A stretch of DNA of 64,000 nt from the NCBI GenBank assembly GCA_963997635.1, contig CAXEND010000005.1, positions 74,232 through 138,231 on the forward strand, written 5' to 3'. Positions 33,806 through 63,976 of the stretch are shown piece by piece. Source of the DNA: an uncultured Rhodospirillaceae bacterium. Its GTDB lineage: Bacteria > Pseudomonadota > Alphaproteobacteria > UBA828. The notes under the pieces are model-generated. The model made no database searches, had not been told where the DNA came from, and saw only the letters and a program-made list of their open reading frames with translations. How positions within the stretch are numbered: the stretch's first letter is position 1; the number at the start of each line of letters is the position of its first letter. The translations under genes and the position numbers were made by a program.

Positions 33806-33879
33806 GGCTCTTGATTAGATCTGAGATGAGTTTTCTATGTTTTTTTACTTATATTATAGAAGTCAAATTTATATAGGAG

Positions 33880-48175: not shown

Positions 48176-50202
48176 AATATCGGTTCCGCAGCTTTATTTT
48201 TTACACATTCTAGTATTATACATCCATCATTTAATACAGATGCACATGCTTTAGGTGGAATAACAATTGTTGAGTCGTTCTGCTGTACTATTGCAGGACC
48301 TTCTAATTTTTCTGACTTTTGCATTTCCTCCCTGCTTAAGGTTGGAGTTTTGATCCAACCTTCCTTGGGTCCCCAAAATACAGGACGCGATTCTGTGCGG
48401 TATTTAGTTATCCATTGGGGTAGTGTTTTAGGTATAACCTTTCTTGGTGCTATTGAAGATGCCCTTGCGTGTACAAGCTCGATAGGACCTTCTGGGAAAG
48501 CATGTCCATAACGGTTATTGTGCAGCTCATGAAATAAATTAGCTATCGCTTTAACTTGAATGTCATCTATATGAACTGGAACCCCTAGTTCATAAGTTTG
48601 TCCTTTGTATCTAAGATCAAGCTTGTAACTATATTTTATTTGTTCTTTCCTGACAGTTTCTGGTAAGCGATTATAAGCCTCATCAGAAAGTTCTAAAAAT
48701 AGGGTTTTTAAAAATTTAACTGTAAGATCTAAGAGTGGTCTGTGGACTGTTCTTATTGAATCTATACGTATTTCACTGACCAACATTCCGTGAGCAGATG
48801 CTGCTCCCGGAAAGGGGGGTATTAGTACCTTTTTAATGCCCAGCTCTTTTGCAACATCCCAGCCATGAGCTGGCCCACCACCTCCACTTGCAAACAAAAT
48901 ATAGTCTCTTGGGTCGCGTCCTCGCTCAACGGAAACTTCCCTAACAGCATTGGCCATATTTGCATTCACAAGTGATATAATACCCCAAGCAGTTTCATGG
49001 GTTTTCATTTTGAGTTTTTTTGATATGTCTTCAATGCTTTTTTCAGCAAGGTCCTTTTGAATTTTTATAGTCCCGCCTAATGGTATATCGGCATTATATC
49101 TACCGATAGTAACAGCGGCATCTGTAACTGTAGCATCTGTTCCTGCGTTACCATAGCAAGCTGGGCCTGGCATTGCCCCTGATGATTTAGGACCCACCTC
49201 TAATCCTCCACCAGGATCTACTGAAGCAATACTTCCTCCACCAGCTCCTACAGAAATAATGTCCAGAGATGGTATGGAAATTGGATATCCACCAATTTCT
49301 ATGCCTATCGTGAGGTCAGGCTTTGCATCTGTTACGGCTGCGACATCTGTGCTTGTCCCACCCATGTCCAAGCTTAGTAAATTAGAGAATCCATGCCTTC
49401 TACCAAATTCAGCTGCGGCAATAACACCTCCTGCAGGCCCGGAGAAGAGTGAATAAACAGGCCTATCTATTGTCTCATTAGGAGAAGCCAGACCACCATT
49501 TGATTGCATTACATAGAAATCTCCTTGAAAAGATTGTGATTGTAGCTTCGGAACGACTTCAGATATGTAATGTTTCATTATGGGCTGAGCAGAGGCATTT
49601 ACGACTGTTGTAGAAGTTCTTTCATATTCACGATACAAAGGTAAGACCTCATGAGAGAGTGAAATGCTGATTCCTGGTATTTCATTAGCAATTGCTTTGC
49701 CAACAAGAATTTCATGAGAGGGGTCAAGGAAAGAAAACAATAAGCAGATAGCAACTGATTCAATTTTCAGTTGTTTTAGTTTTGTAATTATTGCGTTGAT
49801 TTCTGAGGATTCTAACGGGAATATAATTTCTCCACTCGCTGATATCCGTTCATCAAGCTCTAGGCATCGATCTCTTGGGATTAGAGGTTTAGGCTTGGTT
49901 TGGCTTAAGTCAAATAAGTCTTTACGATCTGCTCGCATTATTTCCAGAACATCACGAAAACCTTTAGTCGTAATTAAGGCTGTTTGGGGTCCTTGACCAA
50001 CGAGAAGAGAATTCAATACTACAGTAGTGCCATGAACAATTTCATCTACATCTTGAAATGAGTTTGTGGCCATTTTAACTGCTTTTAGAAAACCTTGACT
50101 GATGTTTTTGGGTGTAGTGGGAGTCTTTCCAACAAAGACTTCTCCATCACTGACTGCTACTATGTCCGTAAAGGTACCACCAACATCAACTGCAATTTTC
50201 AT
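48172..50202 (-). CDS. Hydantoinase A-family protein, second paralog
   Basis: MKIAVDVGGTFTDIVAV N-terminus. 676 aa. Confidence 0.85.
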   Translation of the reverse strand: MKIAVDVGGTFTDIVAVSDGEVFVGKTPTTPKNISQGFLKAVKMATNSFQDVDEIVHGTTVVLNSLLVGQGPQTALITTKGFRDVLEIMRADRKDLFDLSQTKPKPLIPRDRCLELDERISASGEIIFPLESSEINAIITKLKQLKIESVAICLLFSFLDPSHEILVGKAIANEIPGISISLSHEVLPLYREYERTSTTVVNASAQPIMKHYISEVVPKLQSQSFQGDFYVMQSNGGLASPNETIDRPVYSLFSGPAGGVIAAAEFGRRHGFSNLLSLDMGGTSTDVAAVTDAKPDLTIGIEIGGYPISIPSLDIISVGAGGGSIASVDPGGGLEVGPKSSGAMPGPACYGNAGTDATVTDAAVTIGRYNADIPLGGTIKIQKDLAEKSIEDISKKLKMKTHETAWGIISLVNANMANAVREVSVERGRDPRDYILFASGGGGPAHGWDVAKELGIKKVLIPPFPGAASAHGMLVSEIRIDSIRTVHRPLLDLTVKFLKTLFLELSDEAYNRLPETVRKEQIKYSYKLDLRYKGQTYELGVPVHIDDIQVKAIANLFHELHNNRYGHAFPEGPIELVHARASSIAPRKVIPKTLPQWITKYRTESRPVFWGPKEGWIKTPTLSREEMQKSEKLEGPAIVQQNDSTIVIPPKACASVLNDGCIILECVKNKAAEPIL

Positions 50203-50223
50203 ATTACCCTACAATTATTTAAA

Positions 50224-51240
50224 TTATTTTAATGGTTTCCATTCACCCTTTGGTGTCACTGTTTTTACATTAGGTATAATCTCTTCACCAAATTCTTGAA
50301 TTTGATCTTTTAATTCATTTATTGAGCCAGATGGACACATTAGCATACATGTTACTAAAGAATATCCTTCCTCGGCGAGCTCTGCTAAGTGGTCAATGAT
50401 TTGGTTAATACTTCCTGTAAGTGTATGCCTATCTGAGCTTTTTCCTAAAGATTTATTCCCTTTTATGTGTGCCCAAGCAGCAGCAATCATATAAAAATCA
50501 CTGAGATTACGTTTTGTTTTATCAGCTTCACGACGAATTATATCTTGTAATGGTTTATATAGGGCCGGGTTAAATTGTTGATCAAAAAAAAGTGGGTATA
50601 ATCCATCGCAGTTTTCAATTGCTTTGCGAGCTCCAAATGGAGTATTGCCTCCATATAGAATAGGAGGTCTTGGTGACTGTATTGGTTTAGGATCCATAGA
50701 AATATTATTAAAACGATAATGCAAACCTGAAAAATTAATAGACTTATCAGACCAACAATTTTTGTAGATCTCTATACATTCGCTAGTTTTTTCATTGCGT
50801 GTTTTATAGTTAATATTAAGAGCGTCAAATTCTTCTTTTAACCACCCAGACCCAACTCCGAGCAATAATCTTCCGTTAGATAATTGGTCAATCGTCATAA
50901 ATTGCCTGGCATCAGAGAGTGGGTGCCTATAAGGAGCAATTAGAACGGCAGTGCCAAGTTTTATACGTGAGGTCGCTGCAGCTAATGCCCCCATCAGGAC
51001 AGCTCCGTCTAAAATATTGTGCATTGGTTGATATGGTCGCTCTCCTGACGGGTGGGTACTGCCGGAATTAATAGGCATGCATACATGATCGGGAAACCAA
51101 ATCGAATGAAATAATTTGCTTTCAGCTAATTGTGCTATTTCAATGGCAGATATTTCATCAAAAGGTGTATGTTGAAGAACAAAAGCTTCACCCACTTTTT
51201 TACCTAGACCATGTGTATTAGCGTATAGGCCTATTTCCAT
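50224..51240 (-). CDS. LLM-class flavin-dependent oxidoreductase (paralog of 41608..42636)
   Basis: MEIGLYANTHG... with conserved blocks shared with the paralog. Confidence 0.75.
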   Translation of the reverse strand: MEIGLYANTHGLGKKVGEAFVLQHTPFDEISAIEIAQLAESKLFHSIWFPDHVCMPINSGSTHPSGERPYQPMHNILDGAVLMGALAAATSRIKLGTAVLIAPYRHPLSDARQFMTIDQLSNGRLLLGVGSGWLKEEFDALNINYKTRNEKTSECIEIYKNCWSDKSINFSGLHYRFNNISMDPKPIQSPRPPILYGGNTPFGARKAIENCDGLYPLFFDQQFNPALYKPLQDIIRREADKTKRNLSDFYMIAAAWAHIKGNKSLGKSSDRHTLTGSINQIIDHLAELAEEGYSLVTCMLMCPSGSINELKDQIQEFGEEIIPNVKTVTPKGEWKPLK

Positions 51241-51270: not shown

Positions 51271-52176
51271 TTAAATAGGATCCCAGCTGAATATATCTGC
51301 TGAGCGAGTTAGGGGAGCAAAATGTGCTTCTAATGCCGGTATAGCTTGTTCTCCTATAGACTCAACATCCCATCCTTCACTTCGATGAACACTACGAATA
51401 GGCTCATAGGGGTCAAATAGAAAGATCTCATTATGTCTTACCGCGAAAACTTGACCAGTTACGTTGTTAGCATCTTCAGAAGCTAGAAATGCTGCTAGGG
51501 GAGCATTTTTTGCAGGCGTCATTTTTTTTAATCGGGCTACCCTTTCTTTTTGTTCATCAGTTTCTGCTGGTATTTCATTAGTCATTCTGCTCCATGCAAA
51601 AGGCGCTATAGCATTAGATCTTACATTAAATCTTTTCATGTCTAGTGCTATGGCTTTTGACAAAGCACAGATGCCTAATTTTGCTGCAGCATAATTAGCT
51701 TGTCCAAAGTTTCCTATAAGCCCTGAAGTGCTTGTCATATGCACAAAGGCACCTGATTCTTGTTTACGGAAATGTTCAGCTGCCGCACGGCTAAGAAAGA
51801 AACTACCGTTTAGATGAACTCCAATTACGGAAAGCCATTGTTCAGGTGTCATTTTGTGAAAAATGGTATCTCTTAATATCCCAGCATTGTTTATAACAAT
51901 ATCAACACGTCCAAATTCCTTAATTGCCGTATCCACTATAGCACTAGCTCCATCCCAGCTATCTACGCTATTAACATCGATGACAGATCTACCTCCTGAA
52001 GAATCTATTATTTGTTTAGTCTCTTCAGCAGGGCTGTTAGACCCACCTTCTCCTGTTACAGATACGCCTATATCGTTTATAACTATTGAGGCTCCAGTTT
52101 TTGCCAGAGTTATTGCTATTTCTCTGCCAATTCCACCACCTGCTCCAGAAACAATTGCAACTTTTCCTTCATTCAC
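51271..52176 (-). CDS. SDR-family dehydrogenase (3-hydroxyacyl-CoA dehydrogenase-like, MFE-2 N-terminal-domain type)
   Basis: VAIVSGAGGGIGREIA cofactor motif. YAAAKLGICALSKAIALD catalytic motif. 301 aa. Adjacent to a MaoC hydratase gene. Confidence 0.65.
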   Translation of the reverse strand: MNEGKVAIVSGAGGGIGREIAITLAKTGASIVINDIGVSVTGEGGSNSPAEETKQIIDSSGGRSVIDVNSVDSWDGASAIVDTAIKEFGRVDIVINNAGILRDTIFHKMTPEQWLSVIGVHLNGSFFLSRAAAEHFRKQESGAFVHMTSTSGLIGNFGQANYAAAKLGICALSKAIALDMKRFNVRSNAIAPFAWSRMTNEIPAETDEQKERVARLKKMTPAKNAPLAAFLASEDANNVTGQVFAVRHNEIFLFDPYEPIRSVHRSEGWDVESIGEQAIPALEAHFAPLTRSADIFSWDPI

Positions 52177-52247
52177 AGTTTTTCTCCTTACAATGACTTT
52201 TTATATTAACAACTGTTAAGTTTCATATTGATCAATTTCGAAGGTTA

Positions 52248-53093
52248 TTATTTAGAAGTAACATATCCATTACTGAGTACAATTTTTTCTCTTTCAATTG
52301 CTGTTGCCTGAAAAGACCCATTTTCCCATGCTTCAATTAATATTGTATCACCTGGAAAGACGGGTGCCGAGAATCTGGCAGACATACTACTAAACCTTGT
52401 GGGGTCATCATTAAAGATCGTTTGTAAAAGTGATTGGCATGCTATTCCAAACGTACAAAGCCCATGAAGAATTGGCTTATCAAAGCCTGCCTTTTGAGCA
52501 ACCTTGGGATCTATATGTAATGGATTAGGATCACCATTAAGGCGATATAGAAGTGCCTGTTCTGGCCTTGTTTGGATCCTTATTGATGGTAGTGCAGGAC
52601 CGGAAGGATTGGGAGGTAATGGTGGTATATTTCCAGATGGTCCATTGTATCCACCATCGCCACGTAACATAATAGTTCTTTTCTCAGTTGCTAAAAGTTT
52701 ACCACTTATTTTATCAGTGAGTTTTTTCTCTAAATATAAGAATGCACCTTTATTACTGCCTTTATCGACTATATCTGTAATTTTTGTTTTGCCAATAACT
52801 GTGCCTGAACTTGGAATGGGGTTCTCAATTCTGATTTCCTGAGCTGCGTGAACAAGTTTTGTAGCATTGACTGTCGTGCCGGGGTCTCCTAACCAGAAAC
52901 CTGGGTGACCTAAGACCGTGCAGAATGAGGGGATCACTTGTGGACCGTTTGACTCATCAACAAACTGTAATTGCCAAGGGTCAAGTTGATTTTGACCTAT
53001 ACCTACTGATATTGCATATCTAATAGTATCTAATTCTGAAAAATCCTGTTGAACATCAGGTATATTAAAAGCCATTAGTTTGTCGTAATTCAC
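52248..53093 (-). CDS. Double hot-dog MaoC-like (R)-specific enoyl-CoA hydratase (hydratase-2 type)
   Basis: The C-terminal hotdog carries the MaoC motif DPNPLHIDPKVAQKAGFDKPILHGLCTFG. The N-terminal half is also hotdog-like. Confidence 0.7.
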   Translation of the reverse strand: MNYDKLMAFNIPDVQQDFSELDTIRYAISVGIGQNQLDPWQLQFVDESNGPQVIPSFCTVLGHPGFWLGDPGTTVNATKLVHAAQEIRIENPIPSSGTVIGKTKITDIVDKGSNKGAFLYLEKKLTDKISGKLLATEKRTIMLRGDGGYNGPSGNIPPLPPNPSGPALPSIRIQTRPEQALLYRLNGDPNPLHIDPKVAQKAGFDKPILHGLCTFGIACQSLLQTIFNDDPTRFSSMSARFSAPVFPGDTILIEAWENGSFQATAIEREKIVLSNGYVTSK

Positions 53094-53158
53094 TAATCAG
53101 ACCCCTTTTGTTTCTAGAATTAATTTAGCTAAATTTAGATTAGCTACACATTGTCATC

Positions 53159-54361
53159 TTAGCCGTCATAGTGTCCAATAATTGCCACACTAGAAACATT
53201 TTGAACTGGATGTCCTCCTAAATTATGTGTCAGTCCATATTTCATATTATTTATTTGTCTTTCACCAGCACGACCTTGGAATTGTAAAAACATTTCATAG
53301 AGCATACGGAGTCCAGAAGCCCCGATGGGATGGCCAAAACATTTTAACCCTCCGTCAATTTGGCAGGGTATTTGCCCTTCAGCATCAAAACGACCATCAA
53401 GAACCGCCTTCCAGGCTTCTCCTTCGTTTGCAAGGTCAAGATCTTCCATCGTGACCAATTCGGTTATTGAAAAACAATCATGGACTTCTGTAGCACTTAT
53501 TTCTTTTCTGGGGTCTTTTATTTGTGCTTCAGAATATGCTCTTTTGGCGGCAATTCGGGTAGTCTTAATATGGGCTCCATTCCAACTATCAAAACCAGAT
53601 TCTTCCCCATTTGATACGCTTAATTGTAATGCCTTAACTGTGACAATATTTGTTTTACCCAAGCTTAGGGCTATTTCTGGTGTGGTTACTATAGCACAAG
53701 CCGCACCATCACTAACTCCACAACAGTCGAAAAGGCCAATGGGTTCTGCAACCATGGGTGCATTAATTGCTTGGTCATGAGTTATTTTTTTTCTTAGATG
53801 GGCTTTTGGATTACCAAGGCCATTATCATGACTTTTAACAGATACATGAGCCATAGCTCGCTTTAGTTCGTTTTTATCAACTCGATGTGCCCCTCTATAT
53901 CCAGCAGCAAGTTGAGCAAAGGCACCTGGTGCTGAAACTGTAGGAGCGGTTAGGTCGTTAGTGACCCCGCGACCACGTGCGGGTAAACCTCCATATCCCG
54001 TATCTTTTAATTTTTCTACGCCGAGAGCGAGTGCAAAGTCTGCAGTGCCAGACGCAACTGCGTAGCAAGCACCACGGAAGGCTTCAGTCCCGCTTGCACA
54101 CATATTTTCAACATGGGTGACTGGAATATATCGAAGTCGAAGTGCCGTTGATAAAGGGATAGCACTTGGCCCGACATTGACTGCGTCAAAAGCTGTACTG
54201 AGCCATGCAGCGTCTATCTCAGAGCTATCAATTCCTGAATCTTCAATACATTCTTCATATGCTTCTGACATCAGGTCTGCAGGTTCAGACTCCCATCGTT
54301 CTCCAAATTTTGAGCAACCCATTCCCAATATTGCAACTTTATCTCTTATACCTTTAGCCAT
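53159..54361 (-). CDS. SCP2/archaeal-type thiolase (thiolase-fold acetyl-CoA C-acyltransferase-like protein)
   Basis: 400 aa. VAILGMGCSKFGE N-terminus typical of SCPx/archaeal thiolases. NMCASGTEAF candidate nucleophile-cysteine region. C-terminal GHPIGASG. Confidence 0.7.
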   Translation of the reverse strand: MAKGIRDKVAILGMGCSKFGERWESEPADLMSEAYEECIEDSGIDSSEIDAAWLSTAFDAVNVGPSAIPLSTALRLRYIPVTHVENMCASGTEAFRGACYAVASGTADFALALGVEKLKDTGYGGLPARGRGVTNDLTAPTVSAPGAFAQLAAGYRGAHRVDKNELKRAMAHVSVKSHDNGLGNPKAHLRKKITHDQAINAPMVAEPIGLFDCCGVSDGAACAIVTTPEIALSLGKTNIVTVKALQLSVSNGEESGFDSWNGAHIKTTRIAAKRAYSEAQIKDPRKEISATEVHDCFSITELVTMEDLDLANEGEAWKAVLDGRFDAEGQIPCQIDGGLKCFGHPIGASGLRMLYEMFLQFQGRAGERQINNMKYGLTHNLGGHPVQNVSSVAIIGHYDG

Positions 54362-54385
54362 ATTATTTCTCCAAAAATTATTGGA

Positions 54386-55822
54386 CTATTCTGGTGATGC
54401 TTTCCAGAAATATTGTCGCATACCCCTATTTTCATCCAAGTGTTTAATTCGAAAATGCATTTTCGTGCTAATACCAACATCAAAACTTTCAGGATCCAAA
54501 TCTGTAAATTCTACCATCATTCTTCCTCCTCCCTCAAATTCTATGAGACCAAAATATGCTGGAGGTTCCATTGAAAAAACTAGGTGATCTGCGGTGTAAG
54601 TCTTAACCTTTGCAGTAGTTTTGGACATTGAGTGTGATTCTTGGGTATTCCTGGCTCGGCAATTTGGATTTACACAATAGATTGATTTTGGGTATTGAAT
54701 AGTTCCGCATTTAGTACATATACCACCCTTAAAACCAGTAACACCCTCCTTGTTCCGATATTGTGCTGTCAGGGCAGGTGGTCTATCTAATTCAGCCCTT
54801 TTTCCAAATTCACGATTTATATTTCCATTAAAAGTGAGAAACTTTTCATAGTTTTTTTCTTCAACTTTTCTATTTAACCATCCTTCTAAGCCTCGATTAG
54901 GCTGATAGTTTTCTATGAGGTCTGTTACTTCAAATACTAATGCATCGCAACCCTGACCAAAGCTTGATATTACCAATTTTTGTCCAGGCTTAGCCTTTGA
55001 AATTGCAGACACAAGCATGACAAGTGGATGAGCAGTTCCACATATACCAACACTATCAATCATAGTATCAACTGCAGAATCAGTATTAATACCACATTGT
55101 TTAGCAATCGATTCTGCTACACGCTTATATTGGCAGGGCACTATAAGATGGTCGATGTCTGAGCCAGAAAGTCCAACTTTGCCCAAGGCCATATTTATTG
55201 CATTAGGAACAGTTTTTAACCATCCCTCTTGGCGGATCCATCTATCTTCCCAAGTATAATCATAGTCATCTCCACTTGCTCTAAAATGATCTATGAAGTC
55301 ATCATTAATTGATGCAGCCCCAAGAAATTTAAGCCCTGGTTTATCATGACTAACAATTAAAGCTGCAGCTCCATCTCCTGATATCATTTCCATTTGACTT
55401 CCTGCCCGTGCTTTGCGGTTATCAGAAGAGATCAACAAAACATCTTGACCTTGGGCAGAAGCAATATCTAGTGCAGTTAAGAGGGAGGTTGTAGATGCAC
55501 GAAGACTCCCTCCTATATCCATTGTCCTTATGTTATTGTGGAGGTTTAACGCTTCGGCAATAATTCCAGCATTTTGACGAACTGCAAATGGTAGCGTTGT
55601 TGAAGCCAAAATAATGGCTTGGATTTTATCGTCAAGACCACACAAATCTTGAGCCGCCTCAACACCCATTGTTATTGAATCTTCATCCCAGCTACACATC
55701 GTACGTTCGCCTTTAGAAAGGCCTTTAAGAGATGGGTCAAACCAACAGTTAGCTTCAGCAATAACGCTTCTCTGTAATCTTCGGCGTGGGAGATACGCTC
55801 CAAATGCTTTGATCCCAACCAA
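54386..55822 (-). CDS. Thiolase-fold condensing-enzyme-like domain (archaeal HMG-CoA-synthase / KAS-III-like) fused to a C-terminal DUF35 Zn-ribbon/OB-fold domain
   Basis: N-terminal VGIKAFGAYLPRRRL...WDEDSITMGVEAA resembles archaeal HMGCS N-termini. The C-terminal ~120 aa carry CTKCGTIQYPKSIYCVNPNCRARN (a CxxC...CxxC rubredoxin-like ribbon) followed by an OB-fold-like segment. Confidence 0.6.
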   Translation of the reverse strand: MVGIKAFGAYLPRRRLQRSVIAEANCWFDPSLKGLSKGERTMCSWDEDSITMGVEAAQDLCGLDDKIQAIILASTTLPFAVRQNAGIIAEALNLHNNIRTMDIGGSLRASTTSLLTALDIASAQGQDVLLISSDNRKARAGSQMEMISGDGAAALIVSHDKPGLKFLGAASINDDFIDHFRASGDDYDYTWEDRWIRQEGWLKTVPNAINMALGKVGLSGSDIDHLIVPCQYKRVAESIAKQCGINTDSAVDTMIDSVGICGTAHPLVMLVSAISKAKPGQKLVISSFGQGCDALVFEVTDLIENYQPNRGLEGWLNRKVEEKNYEKFLTFNGNINREFGKRAELDRPPALTAQYRNKEGVTGFKGGICTKCGTIQYPKSIYCVNPNCRARNTQESHSMSKTTAKVKTYTADHLVFSMEPPAYFGLIEFEGGGRMMVEFTDLDPESFDVGISTKMHFRIKHLDENRGMRQYFWKASPE

Positions 55823-55975
55823 TTTATTTCTCCCGATAATTCTTGATTATTTGACTTACCCTATGTGGAATAGGAACTAATAGTCAGCTTTGTGGAAAAA
55901 CTATGTTTATAATAGCAGGCAATTCGATATATTCTAGATTATATTTTTCTCCTTATCATAAGAGCGGGGATTCTG
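55823..55975. promoter_or_regulatory. Divergent intergenic region between the thiolase/DUF35 cassette and the Mo-enzyme gene
   Basis: 153-bp AT-rich spacer with a small hairpin (cctat-gtgga-atagg). No motif confirmed. Confidence 0.25.
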
Positions 55976-58363
55976 ATGGAGAACAAATTAAATGATCAAA
56001 TTCAGGGGTTTTGTGCCCTATGTTGGTCACGATGCGGTTGTATTTCAGAAATTAAGGACGGTAGACTAGTCTCTGTTAAACCAGATCCAAGTCATCCGAC
56101 CGGTTCAGCCCTTTGTGCAAAAGGAAAATCAGCACCCGAAAAAATTTATAATAAAGACCGAATTTTGTATCCAATGAAGCGGTCACGACCTAAGGGAAAC
56201 AATGACCCTGGATGGATCAGGATATCGTGGGATGAAGCATTAGATACGATCGTGACGCACCTAAATACAATTTCTGAAGAGTCAGGTGCTGAATCAGTAA
56301 GCTTTGGTATTACTACCCCGGCAGGAACCTCAATGAATGACGGTTATGCGTGGGTTGAGCGTTTTCGTCGGGTTTTTGGGAGCCCAAATGCAGCTATTGC
56401 TATGGAACTTTGTGGTTTTTCACGTGATATGGTTTTCCCATATACATTTGGTGTCCCGTTGCCGATGCCAGAGCATAAGAATTCAGATTGTATTATTTTA
56501 TGGGGGCATAATCCGAGTACGACATGGTTAGCACATGCCAAACGTGTAGCCGATGCAAAAGCACGGGGAGCAAAACTTGTAGTCATTGACCCTCGACGTG
56601 TTGGTCTTGCTGTAAAGGCAGATAGTTGGTTAAGAATAAAACCAGGAACCGACGGTGCTTTAGCTCTATGTTTAGCAAACATCCTCATTCAGCAAAAACA
56701 ATTCGATATGGATTTTGTTAGACAATGGACAAACGGTCCTTTTCTAGTACGTGAGGATAATGGGAGGTTTTTGACTACTCAAGATTTATATTCTGATGGA
56801 TCCAGCCGAGAATTTGTCGTTTGGGACTTGGAAAACAAGAAACATGTGGTTTATGATTCTCAGCAAGGTATATATTTAGGTAATGATATAAATTTTTCTC
56901 TTAGTGGTAGATACACCTTTGAAGGGCATAATGGCCGATTAGTGTGTTCTCCAGCATTTTCTTTATATGCAGATCTATGTGCACAATACTCTCCCAAATA
57001 TGTTGCTCAATTAACACAATTGAAGGAGAGTGAGATCATTGACCTGAGTGAAATGATACGTAACTCAAAGGCACTATCAATCTATATGTGGGCTGGGCTT
57101 GAGATGCATACAAATGCATCTCAAACCAATAGGGCCATTGCAATATTGTATTCACTCACAGGTCATTTTGATAATCCTGGCGGGAATGTAATATTAGAAA
57201 CTACAAAAACAAACGATATTTCCGGTGGTGATGAAATATCTCTTACTCAGAAAAAGAAAGCTCTTGGATATTTGGACAGGCCATTAGGTCCAGAGCAAGA
57301 GGGATGGATTAATTCAGATTCACTCTATAACGGGATTCTTCATTCTAGTCCTTATCCAATTCGTGCTCTTATAAATTTTGGAAAAAATTTTCTATTCTCA
57401 CATGCCGATGCAGGAACTGGTGAAGAAGCCTTTAAGTCACTAGAATTTATGGTTCATATTGATATGTTTGGAAATCCTACTTCTTCTTATGCGGATATAT
57501 TTTTGCCAGTTTGTTCCCCATGGGAAAGAGAGGGGATATCGACAGATTTTGTTGTTGATCAGGAGGCTTCGGGACTTGTCCAGTTTCGAAAGAGTGTTTT
57601 GTCCCCTCTGGGTGAGTCACGCTCAGATATTTGGATCGTTTTAGAATTGGCCAAGAGACTTGGGTTCTCTGAAAAGTTTTGGGGAGGAAATTTTGAACGA
57701 GGCATACAGCATTTTATAGAACCTAGTGGAATAGAATTAAAAGATTTAAAAGAGAATCCTAGGGGCATTAACCTTAACCTTTCAACAAGATACAGGAAAT
57801 ACGCAGAGTCTGTTCATGGATTACCCAGAGGTTTTGAGACACATACTAAAAAAGTTGAGATTTACTCCGAGCTTTTCTTGAAACACGGTTATTCTCCGCT
57901 GCCTAAATATATTGAACCGATGGTAAGTATAGGTATACCAAATATTTATAAAAAAACTTACCCTCTCATTTTAACATCGGGTAAATCCCCACATTTTCTC
58001 CAAAGTCAAAATCGTGGAGAAGAATCACTACGGCGTATGGAGCTAGATCCTCTGGTTGAGTTACATCCTTCAACAGCGGAATTAAGAGGAATCCAAGAAA
58101 ATGATTGGATCTGCATAGAAACTCCTCATGGAAAGTTGCGTGCAAGGGCAAAATTTTCAGACTATTTAGATCCGAATGTTGTATCAGCCACACATGGTTG
58201 GTGGCAGAGATGTGAGGCGCTTGATTGTGATGAATTACCAGTACGTGGAGAAACTTCAGCTAATTTAAATTCAGCTATTGGGAGTGATTTTGTTGATCCG
58301 CTTGGGGGGTCTGTTCCTCATAAGTCTTATGTTTGTGAAGTTTTGAAACTTGATTCTAAATAG
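55976..58363 (+). CDS. Molybdopterin (bis-MGD) oxidoreductase, DMSO-reductase superfamily, cytoplasmic single-subunit type
   Basis: N-terminal 4Fe-4S motif CALCWSRCGC...LCAKG (CxxCxxxC...C-KG). 795 aa of MopB-like catalytic domains and a C-terminal molybdopterin dinucleotide-binding domain. No twin-arginine signal. Confidence 0.75.
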   Translation: MENKLNDQIQGFCALCWSRCGCISEIKDGRLVSVKPDPSHPTGSALCAKGKSAPEKIYNKDRILYPMKRSRPKGNNDPGWIRISWDEALDTIVTHLNTISEESGAESVSFGITTPAGTSMNDGYAWVERFRRVFGSPNAAIAMELCGFSRDMVFPYTFGVPLPMPEHKNSDCIILWGHNPSTTWLAHAKRVADAKARGAKLVVIDPRRVGLAVKADSWLRIKPGTDGALALCLANILIQQKQFDMDFVRQWTNGPFLVREDNGRFLTTQDLYSDGSSREFVVWDLENKKHVVYDSQQGIYLGNDINFSLSGRYTFEGHNGRLVCSPAFSLYADLCAQYSPKYVAQLTQLKESEIIDLSEMIRNSKALSIYMWAGLEMHTNASQTNRAIAILYSLTGHFDNPGGNVILETTKTNDISGGDEISLTQKKKALGYLDRPLGPEQEGWINSDSLYNGILHSSPYPIRALINFGKNFLFSHADAGTGEEAFKSLEFMVHIDMFGNPTSSYADIFLPVCSPWEREGISTDFVVDQEASGLVQFRKSVLSPLGESRSDIWIVLELAKRLGFSEKFWGGNFERGIQHFIEPSGIELKDLKENPRGINLNLSTRYRKYAESVHGLPRGFETHTKKVEIYSELFLKHGYSPLPKYIEPMVSIGIPNIYKKTYPLILTSGKSPHFLQSQNRGEESLRRMELDPLVELHPSTAELRGIQENDWICIETPHGKLRARAKFSDYLDPNVVSATHGWWQRCEALDCDELPVRGETSANLNSAIGSDFVDPLGGSVPHKSYVCEVLKLDSK

Positions 58364-58379
58364 AAATATATCTACTAAT

Positions 58380-59150
58380 TTATTTTGAGATAGTTACTCC
58401 TCCATCAACTGATATTGTTTGTCCCGTAGTCCATTTCCCAGCATCAGATGCAAGATAAATAGCGATTCCAGCTAGGTCTTCGGGATCTCCTAGGCGTCTA
58501 AGAGGAGTTCGTTGAATTCTAACTTTACTTGCTTCAGGGTCCTCCCAGAGTTTTCTAGCAAAGTCAGTTTTTACTAAGCCAGGGGCAATGCAGTTTACAC
58601 GTATATTGTCTGGTCCAAGTTCAACGGCAAGATTTCTGGCAAGTTGGAAATCTCCAGCTTTTGAAACACAATAGGTTCCTATAACTTCTGACCCGAAAAA
58701 ACCTCCTATAGATGAAACAAAAATTATAGAACCATCTCGTTTTTTTCGCATCCCTGGGGCTACAAGCTGTGCTAACCATAGATTTGATTGAATATTTGAT
58801 GCCATAGTTTTTGAAAAAATTTCGTCGGGGATATCGAGTGAGGAGCCATAGTGGGGGTTTATTGCAGCATTTCCTATTGCTATATCTATATCACCCCAAC
58901 GTTGATTCGTCTCATAAACCAATTTTTCTAGTTCAGTTTTTCGACCGACGTTGCATGGTATTCCTATTACCTCTAGTCCATCTGAACATAATTCTTCAAC
59001 TACACTGCTTACGCGGCTCTCATCACGGCTTGAAATTACAACGCGAGCCCCATGTTGTGCCAAGGCAGATGCAATAGCTTTTCCAATACCTTTAGTTGAA
59101 CCAGTTACAATGGCATTTCTTCCTGAAAGATCAAAGAGGTTGTTTCCCAT
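58380..59150 (-). CDS. SDR-family short-chain dehydrogenase
   Basis: AIVTGSTKGIGKAIA and YCVSKAG motifs. 256 aa. Confidence 0.75.
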   Translation of the reverse strand: MGNNLFDLSGRNAIVTGSTKGIGKAIASALAQHGARVVISSRDESRVSSVVEELCSDGLEVIGIPCNVGRKTELEKLVYETNQRWGDIDIAIGNAAINPHYGSSLDIPDEIFSKTMASNIQSNLWLAQLVAPGMRKKRDGSIIFVSSIGGFFGSEVIGTYCVSKAGDFQLARNLAVELGPDNIRVNCIAPGLVKTDFARKLWEDPEASKVRIQRTPLRRLGDPEDLAGIAIYLASDAGKWTTGQTISVDGGVTISK

Positions 59151-59162: not shown

Positions 59163-59873
59163 CTAAAGTCCCAAATATGCTGCTCTTACACTATCATCTT
59201 TGATAAGATCTTCGGCGGGGCCCTTAAGGGCAAGCGACCCTTGTTCAAGAACGTATCCATAGGAGGCTATACTTAATGCTAATGCTGCGTTCTGTTCGAC
59301 CAATACAACTCCGACATCTTCTTCTTGTGTAAGAGTACTGATTGTTTCCATGATTTTTTGTTCTATTACAGGTGCAAGCCCAATAGAAGGTTCGTCTAGA
59401 AGCAGCATTTTAGGCCCAGACATTAGTGCCCTTCCAAAAGCTAACATTTGTTGCTCACCACCACTTAAATTTCGAGCAAGTTGTCGCCTTCGGTCTTTCA
59501 AAATTGGGAAGTGGTGATAGATCCTGTCCAGATCTCTATTAATACCTTTCTTATCTGAACGAAGATATGCTCCAACCATAAGATTATCGTAAACGCTTAT
59601 ACGAGGAAATAATTCTCGCCCTTCTGGGACTTGGGAAATACCCATTTTTACAATTTTTGAGGGTGAAGCGTTATCTATTCTGTTTCCCAAGAAACGAATT
59701 TCTCCAGAAGCAGGCCTTAAAAGACCTGAAATGGTTTTTAAGAGGGTTGTTTTACCTGCTCCATTACTACCAACGATTGTCGTTATAGTATTCTCTGAAG
59801 CACTAACAGATACTTCTCTTAGAGCGGAGATCAGGTCATACTTTACTTCAAGTTGTTTAATTTCAAGCATCAT
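59163..59873 (-). CDS. livF: Branched-chain amino-acid-type ABC transporter ATP-binding protein (LivF-like)
   Basis: Walker A GSNGAGKTT, signature LSGGEQQMLAFGRAL, Walker B LLLDEPSIGLAP. The start is adjusted to the ATGATG at 59873 that overlaps the livG stop. Confidence 0.75.
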   Translation of the reverse strand: MMLEIKQLEVKYDLISALREVSVSASENTITTIVGSNGAGKTTLLKTISGLLRPASGEIRFLGNRIDNASPSKIVKMGISQVPEGRELFPRISVYDNLMVGAYLRSDKKGINRDLDRIYHHFPILKDRRRQLARNLSGGEQQMLAFGRALMSGPKMLLLDEPSIGLAPVIEQKIMETISTLTQEEDVGVVLVEQNAALALSIASYGYVLEQGSLALKGPAEDLIKDDSVRAAYLGL

Positions 59874-60630
59874 GACCCTCAGATTTTCCCAAATAGGCTT
59901 CAATTACAGCAGGGTGTTTAGTTATTTCATCAGCAGTACCTTCAGCAATTTTTTCCCCAAAATTAATGACAGTTATTTTATCGCAAATACTAAGGACTGA
60001 TCGAACGTCGTGCTCAACTAACAAGATAGTAATCCCATAATCACGTAAACCAGAGATTTTCTGTGCAACATTACTTTTCTCTGTTGGATTAAGCCCTGCT
60101 AGAGGCTCATCAAGCATTAGCAAATTAGGTCGAACTGCTAATGCGGTTGCTATTGAAAGAACTCTTTGCATACCTGCAGGAAGCATTCTTGCTGGGGTAT
60201 CAGCCTCTTCCGATAGATTCATATGCTCAAGAATCCAAGAAGTACTATCTTCAATTGAACTGATGCTCGGGAGCTTCGTGTTGTTTGAAATTTCCGCTGA
60301 CTTTTTATTGGCGTGTATGTGGTGACCCATGTGGACATTTTGGCGAACTGACATGTCTCTGTAGACGCTTGTAAGTTGAAATGTTCTGACCAATCCCCTT
60401 TTTGCAATCCTATTGGGTGTTTTTCCTGTTATGGGTTGACCTTTAAATAAAACTTCTCCTGAAGTTGGCTTTAAAAAACCACTTATGAGATGGAAAGTAG
60501 TTGTTTTGCCTGATCCATTAGGTCCTATAAGCCCTCTGATCTGACCTTCTGGAATTGCCATAGATATGTCTTTGACAGCAACTAGTTTGCCAAACCTTTT
60601 TGCGATATTGTTCACTTCAAGAATTGTCAT
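59863..60630 (-). CDS. livG: Branched-chain amino-acid-type ABC transporter ATP-binding protein (LivG-like)
   Basis: GPNGSGKTT Walker A, LMLDEPLAGLNP Walker B, LivG-type insert. The start is adjusted to MTILEV (60630). Confidence 0.75.
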   Translation of the reverse strand: MTILEVNNIAKRFGKLVAVKDISMAIPEGQIRGLIGPNGSGKTTTFHLISGFLKPTSGEVLFKGQPITGKTPNRIAKRGLVRTFQLTSVYRDMSVRQNVHMGHHIHANKKSAEISNNTKLPSISSIEDSTSWILEHMNLSEEADTPARMLPAGMQRVLSIATALAVRPNLLMLDEPLAGLNPTEKSNVAQKISGLRDYGITILLVEHDVRSVLSICDKITVINFGEKIAEGTADEITKHPAVIEAYLGKSEGHDA

Positions 60631-60637
60631 ATGATTG

Positions 60638-61657
60638 CTATCCGATGTTCTTAGCACTAGAGTTTTTAGCTCTATTAAATAAGATTGGTCTTAGCAGTGC
60701 TAGTAACTTTAAGACTGCCATTTCCAATCCCCCGGACCATATCATGAGTACTGCAATAACACTTGCACCCCACAAAAGAGGAACCCATTCTGCAAAGGCA
60801 CGGAATATTTCTTCCAAGGCTGTTAGGTAAAGAAGCCCAAGAATTGGGCCAAAGAACGTTGATACTCCTCCTACAATTGCAGCAGCAACTAACTTGAACA
60901 TAAGAATGGATCCAAAATCCAAAGGATTTATTGCTCCATTAAAATTGGCTGATAATGCCCCTGCGAATCCTGCAATTACTGACCCTAACACAAAAGGCAG
61001 GGTTCTGTGGCCCCAAGTATTTATACCAATGGATTCTGATAATTCTTCATTTGCTGCTACTGCCTTAATTGTTCTTCCTACTCTAGAAAGATCAAAACGG
61101 TATAGTAAAAGCCAAATGATCAGTGCGATTGCGAGAACAAGATAATAGAAACCTGTTGTTGTATTAAAATCAATTCCCCAGAACCCCTCAGGTCTTGGTA
61201 TAAATGAAATTCCAAAACTACCCCCCGTGATACCTTTGAATTGAATATATGCCTGTCGCAAGGCTTCACCAGCAGCGAACGTACTTAGAAAAAAGTAATA
61301 ATGTCGCGTTCTTAGAACTGGATATGCTATTATTAGAGCAAATAAACCAGAAATCCCAGCACCTAAAAATAGAGTTGCCCAGAATGACCATGGTGTTTCA
61401 AGAGTCATTAAGATAGCAGTAGTATATGCCCCGAGACCAGCTGTTGCTACATGAGAAAAAGACCATCCTCCCATTGTAGTAATCACACGGTAGCCCATAA
61501 CCATAATAGTATTTAGAGCAAATATCACCAGCACGCTTTGCCAGTAGGAGGTTAAGGCATGAGGTAAAGCTACCAGCAGAGGAGTAGCTATGATCGTGCC
61601 TATAAGTGCGTATACAAAGCGCTTTGGTGTAGAGGTTATGAATTGAAGGATTGTCAT
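60638..61657 (-). CDS. livM: Branched-chain amino-acid-type ABC transporter permease (LivM-like)
   Basis: 339 aa polytopic membrane protein. Positioned between the LivH-like and LivG-like genes. Confidence 0.7.
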   Translation of the reverse strand: MTILQFITSTPKRFVYALIGTIIATPLLVALPHALTSYWQSVLVIFALNTIMVMGYRVITTMGGWSFSHVATAGLGAYTTAILMTLETPWSFWATLFLGAGISGLFALIIAYPVLRTRHYYFFLSTFAAGEALRQAYIQFKGITGGSFGISFIPRPEGFWGIDFNTTTGFYYLVLAIALIIWLLLYRFDLSRVGRTIKAVAANEELSESIGINTWGHRTLPFVLGSVIAGFAGALSANFNGAINPLDFGSILMFKLVAAAIVGGVSTFFGPILGLLYLTALEEIFRAFAEWVPLLWGASVIAVLMIWSGGLEMAVLKLLALLRPILFNRAKNSSAKNIG

Positions 61658-62517
61658 TCCCGAGAACCCAAAAGACCATTTGGCATGAAACTGAGTACGA
61701 GTAGCATAATTATTGCATCAACCATTGCTGCAAATTTTCCAGCACCAAATGTGGTCATTAAAGTGTCAATTAGTCCAAACAATAGTGCTGCTACTACTGT
61801 TCCCGATAGACTCCCTATACCGCCTACAATAATGATTATAAAAGCACGCCAAAGTGCCTCTGCACCCATAAAGGGTCCAATCATTAACACACTACCCATT
61901 AATGTTCCGGAAATTGCTGCAAGTGCAGAGCCAACAAACATAGTGGTTAATGCAATTTTACCCATGCTTATACCTTGGAGCATAGCTCCGGTTTTATTCT
62001 GGGCAGTTGCTCTTACTGCGCGGCCTAGGTCGGTACGCATTAAGAAATACCAAAGTCCAGCCATCATCAATGCTGTAAAGCCAAGAACTACAATTCTCTG
62101 GATGGGCAAAATTGCGCCTTCAAACATAATGAAACCTGGGAAAATTGCTGGGACAGAACGCCCCATGGGTCCAATAGTTTTCACTACGACGACTTGTAAT
62201 ACGTATGAGAGTCCCAGAGTAGCCATAAAAATGGAGAACGGTTGCTCTTTGAGCCGTTCAAATAACGTTAACTGAACAAGCATCCCTAAAATTCCCACAA
62301 CGCCAGCGCCAACAAGCATTGCAACAATAAAAGTTGCTCCATCAGGTATAGTATTAGAGAGAACACCTGACAGTAGCCAAAGTGCATAGCCGCCAAGCAT
62401 ATAAAACTCACCATGCGCAAAGTTTATTGTGCGCATCACGCCAAATACTAACGCTAATCCAACCGCGAAGGAGACATAAAAGCTACTTAAGAAGATTATG
62501 TTGGCTAAAACTTGCAT
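61654..62517 (-). CDS. livH: Branched-chain amino-acid-type ABC transporter permease (LivH-like)
   Basis: 287 aa polytopic membrane protein. 4-bp overlap with the livM-like gene. Confidence 0.7.
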   Translation of the reverse strand: MQVLANIIFLSSFYVSFAVGLALVFGVMRTINFAHGEFYMLGGYALWLLSGVLSNTIPDGATFIVAMLVGAGVVGILGMLVQLTLFERLKEQPFSIFMATLGLSYVLQVVVVKTIGPMGRSVPAIFPGFIMFEGAILPIQRIVVLGFTALMMAGLWYFLMRTDLGRAVRATAQNKTGAMLQGISMGKIALTTMFVGSALAAISGTLMGSVLMIGPFMGAEALWRAFIIIIVGGIGSLSGTVVAALLFGLIDTLMTTFGAGKFAAMVDAIIMLLVLSFMPNGLLGSRE

Positions 62518-62634
62518 TGTAGAATCTATCAGCCTCTTGTGCTTATAAATTAGCCATTGTTGTCACATTAAGTCTTTATAAAAATGTAACCAAGCTAATA
62601 TATAATAAATTAAGACTTTAAACGCTCTGACGGA

Positions 62635-62660
62635 AGACACCTAAACTGACTTAGATGTCT
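62635..62660 (-). terminator. Imperfect hairpin between the binding-protein and permease genes of the liv-type operon
   Basis: agacacctaa-actgac-ttagatgtct forms a 9/10-bp stem. No clear U-tract follows. Confidence 0.2.
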
Positions 62661-62689
62661 CCCGCCCTAGCTAAATTAAAGTGGACTTA

Positions 62690-63976
62690 TTATCTAAAAA
62701 CTTGTCCGCCTGCATCGATTCTTGGTAATGCGACGTCCTTATGTTTTTCCCACCATGCGGCGTGATCAACAACGTGATCAAGGACAACATTTCCATCAGC
62801 ACCCAAATTATAAATCGGCAATGGAGTTAGAAGATGATGGTTTGCACCATAAATTTCTTCTCCACCCCATTTTGAAGGGCCAAACAATGGGTGGTCAACA
62901 ACATCGGCTGCATAGAGTGTTTCCATAACTACCTTAGAATCTATACTTGGTGACATACGTATGCCAGCTTCTAGTGTCATCATAGAAGCATAGCCAATAG
63001 GTGTATAAGGAGACCATTCCTCAACTCCGTATTCTTCGACATACCATTTATACAGTTCATGTCCTTTGGCACTAAAGGTTGGCTCAGAGGCCTCGAATGC
63101 ATAGCCAAAATATGTTCTACCTGCTAACTGCTCTGCTGGAACACGTTCTAAAATCATAGGGAACGTAAAGCCTTCAGCACAATGTACGCCTTTAAAACCC
63201 ATCTGCTCCATCGTTTCGATCGCAGAAGCATATTGTGCTGGTACCCAACCAAGTTGGCAAACCATATCGGGTTTAGATGCCATTAGTGGAGTTAATAAAC
63301 CCAGCATATCCTTAGTAGCATCTGGAGCATAACTCTCGTTGTATACAATTTCAACTTCAGGATGAGCGGCTACTCCAGCTTCAAAATATGCCTTTGCTGC
63401 TAATCCAAATGATTGGTCAGATGTTATGATTGCTACACGCTTAACATCAGGGTTTGCATCTATTGCCCGACTTGCGATAAGCATATAGGCAGCTGGAGAA
63501 CCAGTAATACCACCGTTTAGATAAGGATGATCCTTGCTAAGGTAGCCTGCACCATATGATGTTGTTAGAACATGATTATCTGTAGTCATTTGAGCAATTG
63601 CTTGTCGACTTCCGGGAGTGAAGGTTTGCAGCATGAACTTGATATTGTCATCAAGAATAGCTTTTCTTCCAGCCTTTAGCTCTTCACCTGGAATGTAGCA
63701 AACATTGTCATATGTTTTGAGGTTGATTTTATAGCGTTTCCCGTCACCCGCCAAAAGACCACCATCTGCGTTTAGTTGATCCGCCCAGTATTGCATTCCT
63801 CTAACGATTGGAATACCCCACTGTGCACAATCTCCAGCTAGGGGTTGGATTGCTCCAACATCTAGGGTTTCTGCTGCTGAAGCTTGCTTATTATCCATAG
63901 CCGTGCTTGCTACAAGTAGTGCAGCTGCTCCAACTACTGAGGGTATAATTCTACCCATTAATTTTGACACATTCAT
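62690..63976 (-). CDS. ABC transporter periplasmic solute-binding protein, type I PBP (LivJ/LivK-like)
   Basis: N-terminal signal peptide (IPSVVGAAALLVASTAMD). 428 aa. Placed upstream of the livHMGF-like genes. Confidence 0.7.
   Translation of the reverse strand: MNVSKLMGRIIPSVVGAAALLVASTAMDNKQASAAETLDVGAIQPLAGDCAQWGIPIVRGMQYWADQLNADGGLLAGDGKRYKINLKTYDNVCYIPGEELKAGRKAILDDNIKFMLQTFTPGSRQAIAQMTTDNHVLTTSYGAGYLSKDHPYLNGGITGSPAAYMLIASRAIDANPDVKRVAIITSDQSFGLAAKAYFEAGVAAHPEVEIVYNESYAPDATKDMLGLLTPLMASKPDMVCQLGWVPAQYASAIETMEQMGFKGVHCAEGFTFPMILERVPAEQLAGRTYFGYAFEASEPTFSAKGHELYKWYVEEYGVEEWSPYTPIGYASMMTLEAGIRMSPSIDSKVVMETLYAADVVDHPLFGPSKWGGEEIYGANHHLLTPLPIYNLGADGNVVLDHVVDHAAWWEKHKDVALPRIDAGGQVFR

Follow-up and report, generated by a model that had tools for sequence, protein, structure and literature searches.

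The MopB gene at 55976-58363 (+) lies in a 64-kb window of DNA (64,000 nucleotides of contig CAXEND010000005.1 from an uncultured Rhodospirillaceae bacterium, the whole of which was analysed). Judged from its sequence, it encodes the sole subunit of a soluble cytoplasmic enzyme carrying molybdenum or tungsten on bis(molybdopterin guanine dinucleotide) (Mo- or W-bisMGD), with an N-terminal [4Fe-4S] cluster (FS0). Alignments and profiles place the protein in a widespread uncharacterised family that is related to acetylene hydratase (AH) yet distinct from it. We tentatively propose, with a probability of roughly 0.45, that it is a redox catalyst that would receive electrons from a separate reductase or ferredoxin and carry out a two-electron oxygen-atom transfer on an imported organic compound, which would then be processed by short-chain dehydrogenase/reductase (SDR), hydantoinase, thiolase and MaoC enzymes. 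The range of immediate interest, 55823-59150, comprises a 153-bp divergent intergenic region, the MopB gene and a convergent SDR gene (58380-59150).

The functions of MopB enzymes are usually assigned from their partner subunits and operon context, and the family studied here offers neither. Orphan MopB enzymes are common, and another uncharacterised subfamily of a very well-known superfamily is no great surprise to a specialist. What is new here is the separation from AH, a sister clade fused to a reductase and a clade-specific synteny, which together lead to a testable proposal on function and single out the fused orthologues as a route to the substrate.

The MopB gene and its family

The open reading frame (ORF) begins at the first start codon past an in-frame stop, which rules out a longer N-terminus, and encodes 795 amino acids (aa). 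The features of the gene and of the region upstream are as follows.

55823..55975 (no strand): divergent intergenic region of 153 bp between an HMG-CoA-synthase (HMGCS)-like/DUF35 gene (-) and the MopB gene (+)
55976..58363 (+): MopB gene, predicted to encode a 795-aa cytoplasmic Mo/W-bisMGD and [4Fe-4S] enzyme of an AH-related uncharacterised family
56012..56125 (+): FS0 [4Fe-4S] motif C13-x2-C16-x3-C20-x26-C47-A-K49-G50, from the translation and the family alignment
56411..56413 (+): codon of Cys146, the predicted metal ligand, which aligns with AH Cys141; local sequence E144-L-C146-G-F
56747..56956 (+): family-specific beta-rich insertion, residues ~258-327 (~70 aa), absent from AH

Three Pfam domains exceed their gathering scores, namely Molybdop_Fe4S4 (residues 12-59), Molybdopterin (residues 62-561, 142 bits) and Molydop_binding (residues 664-784, 75 bits), and Pfam recognizes no further domain between the last of these and the C-terminus at residue 795. 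The N-terminus reads MENKLNDQIQGF, followed by C13-AL-C16-WSR-C20 and later by C47-A-K49-G50. This arrangement and the Molybdop_Fe4S4 match bear out the CxxCxxxC...CxKG cluster site that an earlier reading of the letters without database searches (the sequence-only reading) had seen in this 795-aa protein. Cysteines 13, 16 and 20 are found in 39 of 40 family members, and C47, K49 and G50 in all 40; Lys49 corresponds to the residue that relays electrons between FS0 and the pterin. Direct reading of the 12 residues ahead of the first cluster cysteine reveals neither a twin-arginine nor a hydrophobic stretch. The protein thus has no twin-arginine translocation (TAT) signal and is predicted to be cytoplasmic, as the same reading had held.

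The metal ligand was sought by alignment with AH (PDB 2E7Z). Residue numbers printed by HMMER for AH run three below what we take to be the literature numbers, and three were therefore added. After renumbering, AH Cys141, the tungsten ligand, pairs with Cys146, which supplies the ligand assignment that the sequence-only reading had left to an alignment. Cys146 is invariant (40/40), and the residue next after it is Gly, Asn, Asp or Ala across the family. An AlphaFold2 model of the protein (predicted local distance difference test score 87.7) matches many MopB structures with a probability of 1.00 and query-normalised TM-scores of 0.66-0.79. The sequence and fold features of the MopB (dimethyl sulfoxide (DMSO)-reductase) superfamily are accordingly in place: the Molybdopterin and Molydop_binding domains, the four-domain fold, FS0 with its relay lysine and the Cys ligand position.

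Full-length homologues at >=50% identity to the MopB protein form more than 120 clusters (90% identity), and exact copies are present on seven independent marine metagenome contigs, one of them a 140-kb Tara Oceans scaffold. These occurrences establish that the gene is real. Copies with 97% identity are found in the metagenome-assembled genome (MAG) 'Gammaproteobacteria bacterium SAT1367'. The family is drawn from surface-ocean and soil metagenomes and from cultured Alphaproteobacteria such as Bradyrhizobium and Methylocella, and its members are labelled in databases only as 'molybdopterin-dependent oxidoreductase'. The cultured carriers (Bradyrhizobium, Methylocella, Marinivivus and Aquabacter) are presumably aerobes. 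In MAG PAWF01, the region from the hydantoinase A gene to the MopB gene, along with the SDR gene and the Liv-type ATP-binding cassette (ABC) genes, is present twice (contigs 053 and 008; loci L004 and L005). The MopB protein of each copy shares 97% identity with that of the window, and the doubling suggests strain redundancy of the bin, not true paralogy.

Among solved structures, AH is the best match by sequence (HMMER, 237 bits, E 2.7e-69), by family profile (355 bits, with PsrA at 266 and FdhF at 253) and by fold (target-normalised TM-score 0.86, root-mean-square deviation 3.9 Å), and the NapA and FdhF structures rank beneath it. Identity to AH is ~24-30% (~24% in the structural alignment). 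AH Asp13, which lies next to the second FS0 cysteine, is described as the catalytic residue beside the metal-bound water. The position aligned with it, residue 17, is Trp in 30, Thr in 6, Ile in 1 and Val in 1 of 40 members, and is never Asp or Glu. HMMER alignments to AH also break at residues 255-335, where the insertion lies, with strands predicted at 279-326. The insertion columns are occupied at 0.99 in the query clade, 0.90 in the reductase-fused clade described below, 0.06 in a group of AH-sized proteins and 0 in AH. In a neighbour-joining tree of 128 sequences, in which the query clade is sampled by nine proteins that are all ~795 aa long, AH falls far from this clade among proteins of 690-720 aa. 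The exchange of Asp13 for Trp17 and the ~70-residue insertion exclude membership of AH proper. By these sequence criteria, the family is a separate lineage and not simply part of the AH branch. The placement in that branch by the sequence-only reading therefore holds in that AH is the closest characterised relative, and fails in that a lineage at ~24-30% identity with its own insertion stands apart from it.

All NCBIfam equivalog cut-offs were missed by a wide margin, in line with the earlier view that the specificity of the protein was open.

Fdh-alpha: 251 bits, cut-off 666 (top NCBIfam model by raw score)
DMSO_red_II: 235 bits, cut-off 985
PhsA: 226 bits, cut-off 694 (third-best NCBIfam model)
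NasC: 170.9 bits, cut-off 1100
YnfE: 130 bits, cut-off 1675
ArrA: 111 bits, cut-off 1600
EbdA: 88 bits, cut-off 2000
NasA (haloarchaeal): 65.6 bits, cut-off 1000

The intergenic region carries a GGGG Shine-Dalgarno-like run 8 nt ahead of the MopB ATG. A small palindrome at 55927-55944 (ATATTCTAGA / TCTAGATTATAT), situated inside a core of the region that is partly conserved in two related loci (L004 and L008), could be an operator site. Scans of the region for promoter-like hexamers and terminators gave counts that match shuffled expectation and are uninformative. The sequence-only reading had suggested looking upstream of the gene for a molybdenum cofactor (Moco) riboswitch. An Rfam search of 55700-56100 at E <= 10 returned no such element and yielded chance-level matches alone (E > 2), and neither this riboswitch nor any other RNA element in the window was matched at the Rfam gathering score.

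The reductase-fused sister clade

When 1.84 billion cluster representatives (50% clusters) were searched exhaustively with HMMER, relatives with an additional C-terminal module came to light. The 30 best representatives align over residues ~7-793 at 39-47% identity, and 16 of them are ~1,100-1,150 aa long. Pfam analysis of seven long forms found NAD_binding_1 and a C-terminal plant-type Fer2 domain past the MopB part in all seven and FAD_binding_6 in six; for two further long forms, NAD_binding_1 and Fer2 appear in precomputed annotation. The module best matches the reductase domain of Hmp, PaaE and Hcr. Proteins of this type act as NAD(P)H:acceptor reductases and supply a partner that carries out the catalysis. 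The fusions, which are 39-45% identical to the MopB protein, comprise P0166-P0204 and the metagenomic loci L043 (4012-7437), L095 (10001-13420) and L096 (10001-13402), and fused forms are present in the cultured Bradyrhizobium macuxiense (WP_066512324.1), Marinivivus vitaminiproducens (WP_442499840.1) and Aquabacter (WP_209104073.1). The MopB-FAD_binding_6/NAD_binding_1/Fer2 architecture is described in no paper that we found. Likewise, no paper was found that links the MopB family, or its fusion to a ferredoxin reductase-type (FNR) and Fer2 module, to a function.

In the neighbour-joining tree, the query clade is sister to a group composed of the fusions and a few unfused forms. The two clades share the insertion and also D122, E144, C146, W176, W184, W372, Q536, R538, R680, W742 and W743. 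The existence of the fusion in the sister clade suggests that the unfused MopB protein is served by a separate partner of this type. It also argues for a redox enzyme with electron transfer, not a hydratase. Non-redox hydratases were among the functions that the sequence-only reading had entertained, and that option is weakened both by the fusion to an NAD(P)H-flavin-[2Fe-2S] reductase and by the exchange of Asp13 for Trp17. Being self-sufficient, the fused enzymes from cultured Bradyrhizobium, Aquabacter and Marinivivus offer an experimental handle with NADH oxidation as the readout.

Other observations concern the partners of these proteins. In the two fused genes whose surroundings were examined (Marinivivus and Bradyrhizobium), the next gene downstream encodes an SCFA_trans transporter. 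A separate FNR/Fer2 reductase near unfused members was looked for by tblastn with three fused C-terminal modules, and the only locus matched was L043, itself a fusion. A more distant protein, P0208 (983 aa, 36% identity), has an N-terminal Fer4_11 dicluster domain of PsrB/DmsB-like type fused ahead of the MopB part.

Gene neighbourhoods in the window and in relatives

The genes that flank the MopB gene in the window were annotated as follows; HydA and HydB denote hydantoinases A and B, and LLM denotes luciferase-like monooxygenase.

46481-48175 (-): HydB, in the stretch 46481..51240
48172-50202 (-): HydA, in the same stretch
50224-51240 (-): LLM-class oxidoreductase, in the same stretch
51271..55822 (-): acyl-CoA-type cassette, divergent from the MopB gene, holding the next four genes (Pfam/NCBIfam and matching public contigs)
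51271-52176 (-): 301-aa SDR
52248-53093 (-): MaoC/MFE-2 hydratase
53159-54361 (-): SCP-x-type thiolase
54386-55822 (-): HMGCS-like and DUF35 fusion
58380..59150 (-): classical SDR of 256 aa, convergent with the MopB gene across a 16-bp gap; last gene of the ABC-transporter operon
59163..63976 (-): Liv/Urt-type ABC importer, holding the next five genes (Pfam/NCBIfam and matching public contigs)
59163-59903 and 59863-60657 (-): two ABC ATPases
60638-61657 and 61654-62517 (-): two BPD_transp_2 permeases
62690-63976 (-): Peripla_BP_6 binding protein

These annotations confirm the neighbours named in the sequence-only reading, with the HMGCS-like/DUF35, thiolase, MaoC and SDR genes on the divergent side and another SDR gene convergent. 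On sequence grounds, HydA and HydB represent an ATP-dependent enzyme of the caprolactamase and acetone/acetophenone carboxylase family; HydA scores 335 bits with the NCBIfam acetophenone carboxylase gamma model and 491 bits with that for caprolactamase alpha. In the 64-kb window, neither Pfam annotation nor a scan of every open frame for iron-sulfur motifs turned up a Fer4, Fer2 or cytochrome partner, and Moco-biosynthesis, nirBD/nasDE and nitrate-transporter genes are likewise missing, which upholds the absence of electron-transfer, nitrite-reductase and Moco genes that had been noted earlier. The same motif scan, applied to small ORFs that might encode a ferredoxin, returned just the FS0 of the MopB protein and one chance match, an 82-codon frame at 28660-28905 that overlaps the region of an opposite-strand EamA gene.

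The remainder of the window was annotated from precomputed Pfam hits of matching public contigs. It encodes further hydantoinases, several LLM oxidoreductases, two old yellow enzyme (OYE)-like reductases, a Baeyer-Villiger monooxygenase accompanied by an esterase, and a urease operon. The stretch 12313-27149 has a dense gene set typical of alicyclic or ketone catabolism, with a Baeyer-Villiger-type flavin monooxygenase (12313-14214), an Abhydrolase_3 esterase (14334-15263), LLM oxidoreductases, a GMC oxidoreductase, an acyl-CoA ligase and, at 20573-24646, two proteins resembling OYE/2,4-dienoyl-CoA reductases. This repertoire is reminiscent of genomes described for degraders of recalcitrant dissolved organic matter. 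The urease operon is complete (30181-35411, +), with ureE, ureF, a fused gamma/beta subunit, the alpha subunit, ureG and ureD. Near the start of the window, two tandem HydB segments (3869-5579 and 5707-7417) of 1,711 nt each are identical base for base. They lie in duplicate HydB ORFs (3867-5636 and 5705-7465, -) that adjoin a hydantoinase A gene (7507-9591) and an iron-type alcohol dehydrogenase gene (9622-10872). The tandem reflects a very recent duplication or else an artefact of assembly; the Tara scaffold (L092) likewise has two HydB genes.

Several of the same gene families accompany the MopB gene in its closer relatives. Identities in this list are to the MopB protein of the window.

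L010, 55%: LivM-LivG-LivF-HydB-MopB-SDR on one strand, with gaps of 31 and 6 bp
L007 and L090, 57%: HydA-HydB-MopB on the same strand with a 25-bp gap; convergent SDR; Liv-type ABC system in L090 only
P0056, 53%: SDR, MaoC and CoA-transferase on one side; HMGL-like lyase, Baeyer-Villiger monooxygenase, esterase, CoA ligase, thiolase and DUF35 on the other
P0045, 53%: two LLM oxidoreductases, cupin, SnoaL and cyclase near; acyl-CoA dehydrogenase and amidase further off
P0082 / L094, 52%: behind an acyl-CoA synthetase, adjoining a GntR regulator and a Liv-type ABC system
P0066, 52%: nothing comparable nearby

Locus L010 is the contig that belongs to protein cluster P0029, and the named members of this cluster are Rhodospirillales and Alphaproteobacteria MAGs. 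In L010, the SDR gene follows the MopB gene in the same orientation after 6 bp, and its product is 72% identical to the 256-aa SDR of the window. In L090 and L007, a 78%-identical orthologue of the 301-aa SDR is encoded 10 kb from the MopB gene. A Liv-type transporter adjoins MopB in L010, L090 and L094, and P0045 has none of the recurrent neighbours. Orthology of the hydantoinases across the MopB loci was rejected, as identities of ~28-36% mark them as paralogues. The contexts of the close clade and of the fused genes point to small imported organic substrates, not to respiration or oxyanion assimilation. The sequence-only reading had suggested that the protein hydroxylates or hydrates a substrate that feeds the adjacent module. 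A link to such a module gains some support from the relatives at 52-57% identity that lie beside SDR, MaoC, thiolase/DUF35, hydantoinase A/B and Liv-type ABC genes, whereas the hydrating role is weakened by the evidence given above.

The wider family was sampled at ~80 further soil and marine metagenome loci, mostly at 40-47% identity, with two at 55% and 51% and a few at 30-39%. When 476 ORFs neighbouring the homologues at 83 loci were clustered de novo, no gene family occurred at more than seven loci, and hence no conserved partner gene emerged. Similarly, Pfam analysis of 20 immediate same-strand neighbours of wider-family homologues gave a heterogeneous set with no ferredoxin. The lack of a recurrent neighbour in these loci fits a self-contained enzyme. 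At three loci from the soil and marine metagenome search (L016, L043 and L068), the homologue lies beside a resistance-nodulation-division (RND) efflux pump composed of an AcrB-like protein and a membrane-fusion protein, which may hint at a detoxification role in some members.

Proposed reaction, alternatives and known systems

The redox mechanism that we favour would run as follows. NAD(P)H would give two electrons to a flavin/[2Fe-2S] reductase or to a ferredoxin whose gene lies elsewhere, and these would pass to FS0, so that the full path would be NAD(P)H, flavin, [2Fe-2S], FS0 and Mo/W. The Mo/W centre would then carry out a reaction of the oxygen-atom-transfer type, most likely the reductive deoxygenation or dehydroxylation of a small organic molecule. 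The MopB gene would be part of a catabolic island in a marine proteobacterium, where the Liv-type ABC system would import the compound and the adjacent SDR, the ATP-dependent hydantoinase A/B and the thiolase/DUF35/MaoC module would process it onward.

A number of points weigh against this mechanism. AH is non-redox and nonetheless retains both FS0 and the relay lysine, which means that their presence in itself is no proof of redox chemistry. No reductase or ferredoxin gene is present in the 64-kb window or within <=10 kb of any unfused homologue examined, which makes the electron partner hypothetical. The fused clade differs from the query clade at the likely active-site positions 17 (Arg/Lys versus Trp), 148, 376, 476 and 673, such that its chemistry or substrate may differ. 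[quoted passage not shown] As to gene context, the MopB gene is monocistronic in the window, the neighbour links hold just at >=52% identity with none recurrent among the ~80 loci that are mostly at 40-47%, and the adjacent hydantoinases and some SDRs of different genomes are paralogues (~30-36% identity), not orthologues.

A broader statement is more doubtful still: that the query and fused clades form an unrecognised class of cytoplasmic NAD(P)H-driven bis-MGD enzymes, spread over ocean and soil metagenomes and presumably aerobic cultured Alphaproteobacteria, that perform oxygen-atom transfer (deoxygenation, dehydroxylation or hydroxylation) on small organic molecules acquired from dissolved organic matter, together with ATP-dependent hydantoinase-type enzymes and SDRs in marine proteobacteria. 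If this were true, the class would be a new entry point of Mo/W chemistry into aerobic carbon or nitrogen scavenging. Should the substrate be a compound of dissolved organic matter, Mo/W-bisMGD chemistry would reach past anaerobic respiration and nitrate assimilation into aerobic heterotrophy; should it be mundane, the outcome would be the routine annotation of an orphan subfamily.

An unlikely alternative is a water-dependent hydroxylase or dehydrogenase following the logic of ethylbenzene degradation. The MopB enzyme would hydroxylate an alkyl or alicyclic substrate with an OH taken from water, and the SDR would oxidize the resulting alcohol. The ketone so formed would be carboxylated by the hydantoinase-type enzyme at the expense of ATP, and the thiolase module would cleave the beta-keto product. 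The anaerobic route of Aromatoleum aromaticum uses EbdABC (ethylbenzene dehydrogenase, EbDH), Ped, ApcABCDE and a thiolase, and the four corresponding enzyme classes all surround the MopB gene. The HydA scores with the acetophenone carboxylase and caprolactamase models and the HydA-HydB-MopB and HydB-MopB-SDR arrays of relatives also favour this route. This co-location of MopB, SDR, hydantoinase-family ATP-dependent and thiolase enzymes is, however, a functional analogy only. The known C-H hydroxylases of the superfamily, EbdA and S25dA, are periplasmic three-subunit type II enzymes with an Asp ligand, EbdA being accompanied by beta and gamma subunits, whereas the window protein is cytoplasmic, Cys-ligated and alone. 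We infer that passing electrons to NAD+ would be thermodynamically awkward for a water-dependent hydroxylase acting on unactivated carbon, which could not reduce NAD+, and yet the sister clade is tied to an NAD(P)H-type reductase. Moreover, the immediate cluster has no CoA ligase, and the MopB-adjacent hydantoinases of different genomes are just ~35% identical.

An AH-like non-redox hydratase is still less probable. Such an enzyme would add water to an unsaturated bond with FS0 keeping the metal reduced, and the resulting alcohol or carbonyl would be used by the SDR and the downstream genes. The rank of AH as closest solved relative by sequence, profile and fold speaks for this possibility, as does the lack of a redox partner encoded nearby. 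In addition, several aromatic residues of the AH pocket align approximately, with an uncertainty of about one residue, with the invariant W184, W372 and F525. Set against these points are the loss of the presumed catalytic Asp13, replaced by Trp or Thr and never by Asp or Glu, the low identity to AH, the 70-residue insertion and the fusion of the sister clade to an NAD(P)H reductase module.

There is little chance that the protein is a detoxifying cytoplasmic reductase of an inorganic or chalcogen oxyanion or of a sulfur species, of the Psr/Phs, selenate, tellurate or arsenate type. PsrA (PDB 2VPW) ranks second among the solved structures and shares a Cys ligand and FS0 with the MopB protein, PhsA is the third-best NCBIfam model, and homologues lie beside RND efflux pumps at the three loci named above. 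The PhsA, YnfE and ArrA scores fall far short of their cut-offs, however, and Psr enzymes are TAT-exported with PsrB (4x[4Fe-4S]) and PsrC partners, whereas the window protein has neither signal nor partners, and no Fer4 protein is encoded in the window. The conserved contexts are organic-acid, CoA-type and organic-solute transporter genes, and in the query clade the positions that match the AH pocket carry mostly aromatic, not cationic, residues.

An assimilatory nitrate reductase of the NasA/NarB type or a cytoplasmic formate dehydrogenase is highly improbable: an N-terminal FS0, a Cys ligand and a cytoplasmic location are held in common and Fdh-alpha gives the top raw score, but the Fdh-alpha, NasC and NasA cut-offs are missed, the NapA and FdhF structures rank below AH, the window has no nitrite-reductase or nitrate-transporter gene and its ABC system is of Liv/Peripla_BP_6 type. 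A placement among nitrate reductases, which would have spoken against the sequence-only reading, finds no support, with NasC at 171 of the 1100 bits called for and no nir or nrt genes in the window. Formate dehydrogenases (FdhF/FdsA) have a Sec/Cys-His pair at the active site, and Gly, Asn, Asp or Ala, not His, follows Cys146.

Comparison with characterised systems delimits the family further. Members of the NasA/NasC/NarB group are, like the MopB protein, cytoplasmic enzymes with FS0, bis-MGD and a Cys ligand, and some are single-subunit and ferredoxin-dependent or carry fused electron-transfer domains; the MopB protein is nevertheless nearer to AH than to any nitrate reductase structure. Type II DMSO reductases (EbdA, PcrA, NarG and S25dA) have a His-containing FS0 motif. 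Their metal ligand is Asp (PMC10100899, Table 1), and the MopB protein, with its Cys ligand, all-Cys FS0 and lack of a beta subunit, is not one of them. An orphan cytoplasmic MopB protein of 720 aa in M. smegmatis, MSMEG_6816, belongs to the GlnR regulon, rises ~30-fold on nitrogen starvation and was shown not to be a nitrate reductase (PMC7816997, PMC4222082). It is a possible functional parallel that we do not use as evidence.

AH itself, from Pelobacter/Syntrophotalea acetylenica, resembles the MopB protein in being cytoplasmic and single-subunit with a CxxCxxxC...CxK FS0 and a Cys ligand. It is smaller (727 versus 795 aa) and comes from a strict anaerobe, whereas the MopB family comes from surface-ocean and soil metagenomes and cultured Alphaproteobacteria. 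A survey of the superfamily grouped 452 sequences as 'AH' by best hit with no further division (PMC10100899). Within this neighbourhood, MES of Caldithrix abyssi has an AH-related MopB module with four N-terminal cysteines and a Cys metal ligand, followed by a C-terminal pyridoxal phosphate-dependent cysteine desulfurase (PMC9516567). MES proteins occur in strict anaerobes and are fused to the desulfurase; the window protein has no C-terminal extension, and its fused relatives carry FAD, NAD and Fer2 domains instead, so it is not an MES. The catechol dehydroxylases Dadh, Cldh and Dodh of gut Actinobacteria, bis-MGD enzymes whose nearest relative is reported to be AH, reductively remove oxygen from organic substrates, and those of Gordonibacter have no TAT signal and are presumed soluble (PMC7028382). 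Their likeness to the window protein is one of description and of common proximity to AH. Next to their genes lies one for an electron-transfer protein of the 4Fe-4S type, in some cases along with a membrane anchor, whereas no such gene lies beside the MopB gene. Both the catechol dehydroxylases and MES differ from the MopB protein in architecture, and both illustrate that relatives of AH perform diverse and unexpected chemistry on organic substrates (PMC7028382, PMC9516567).

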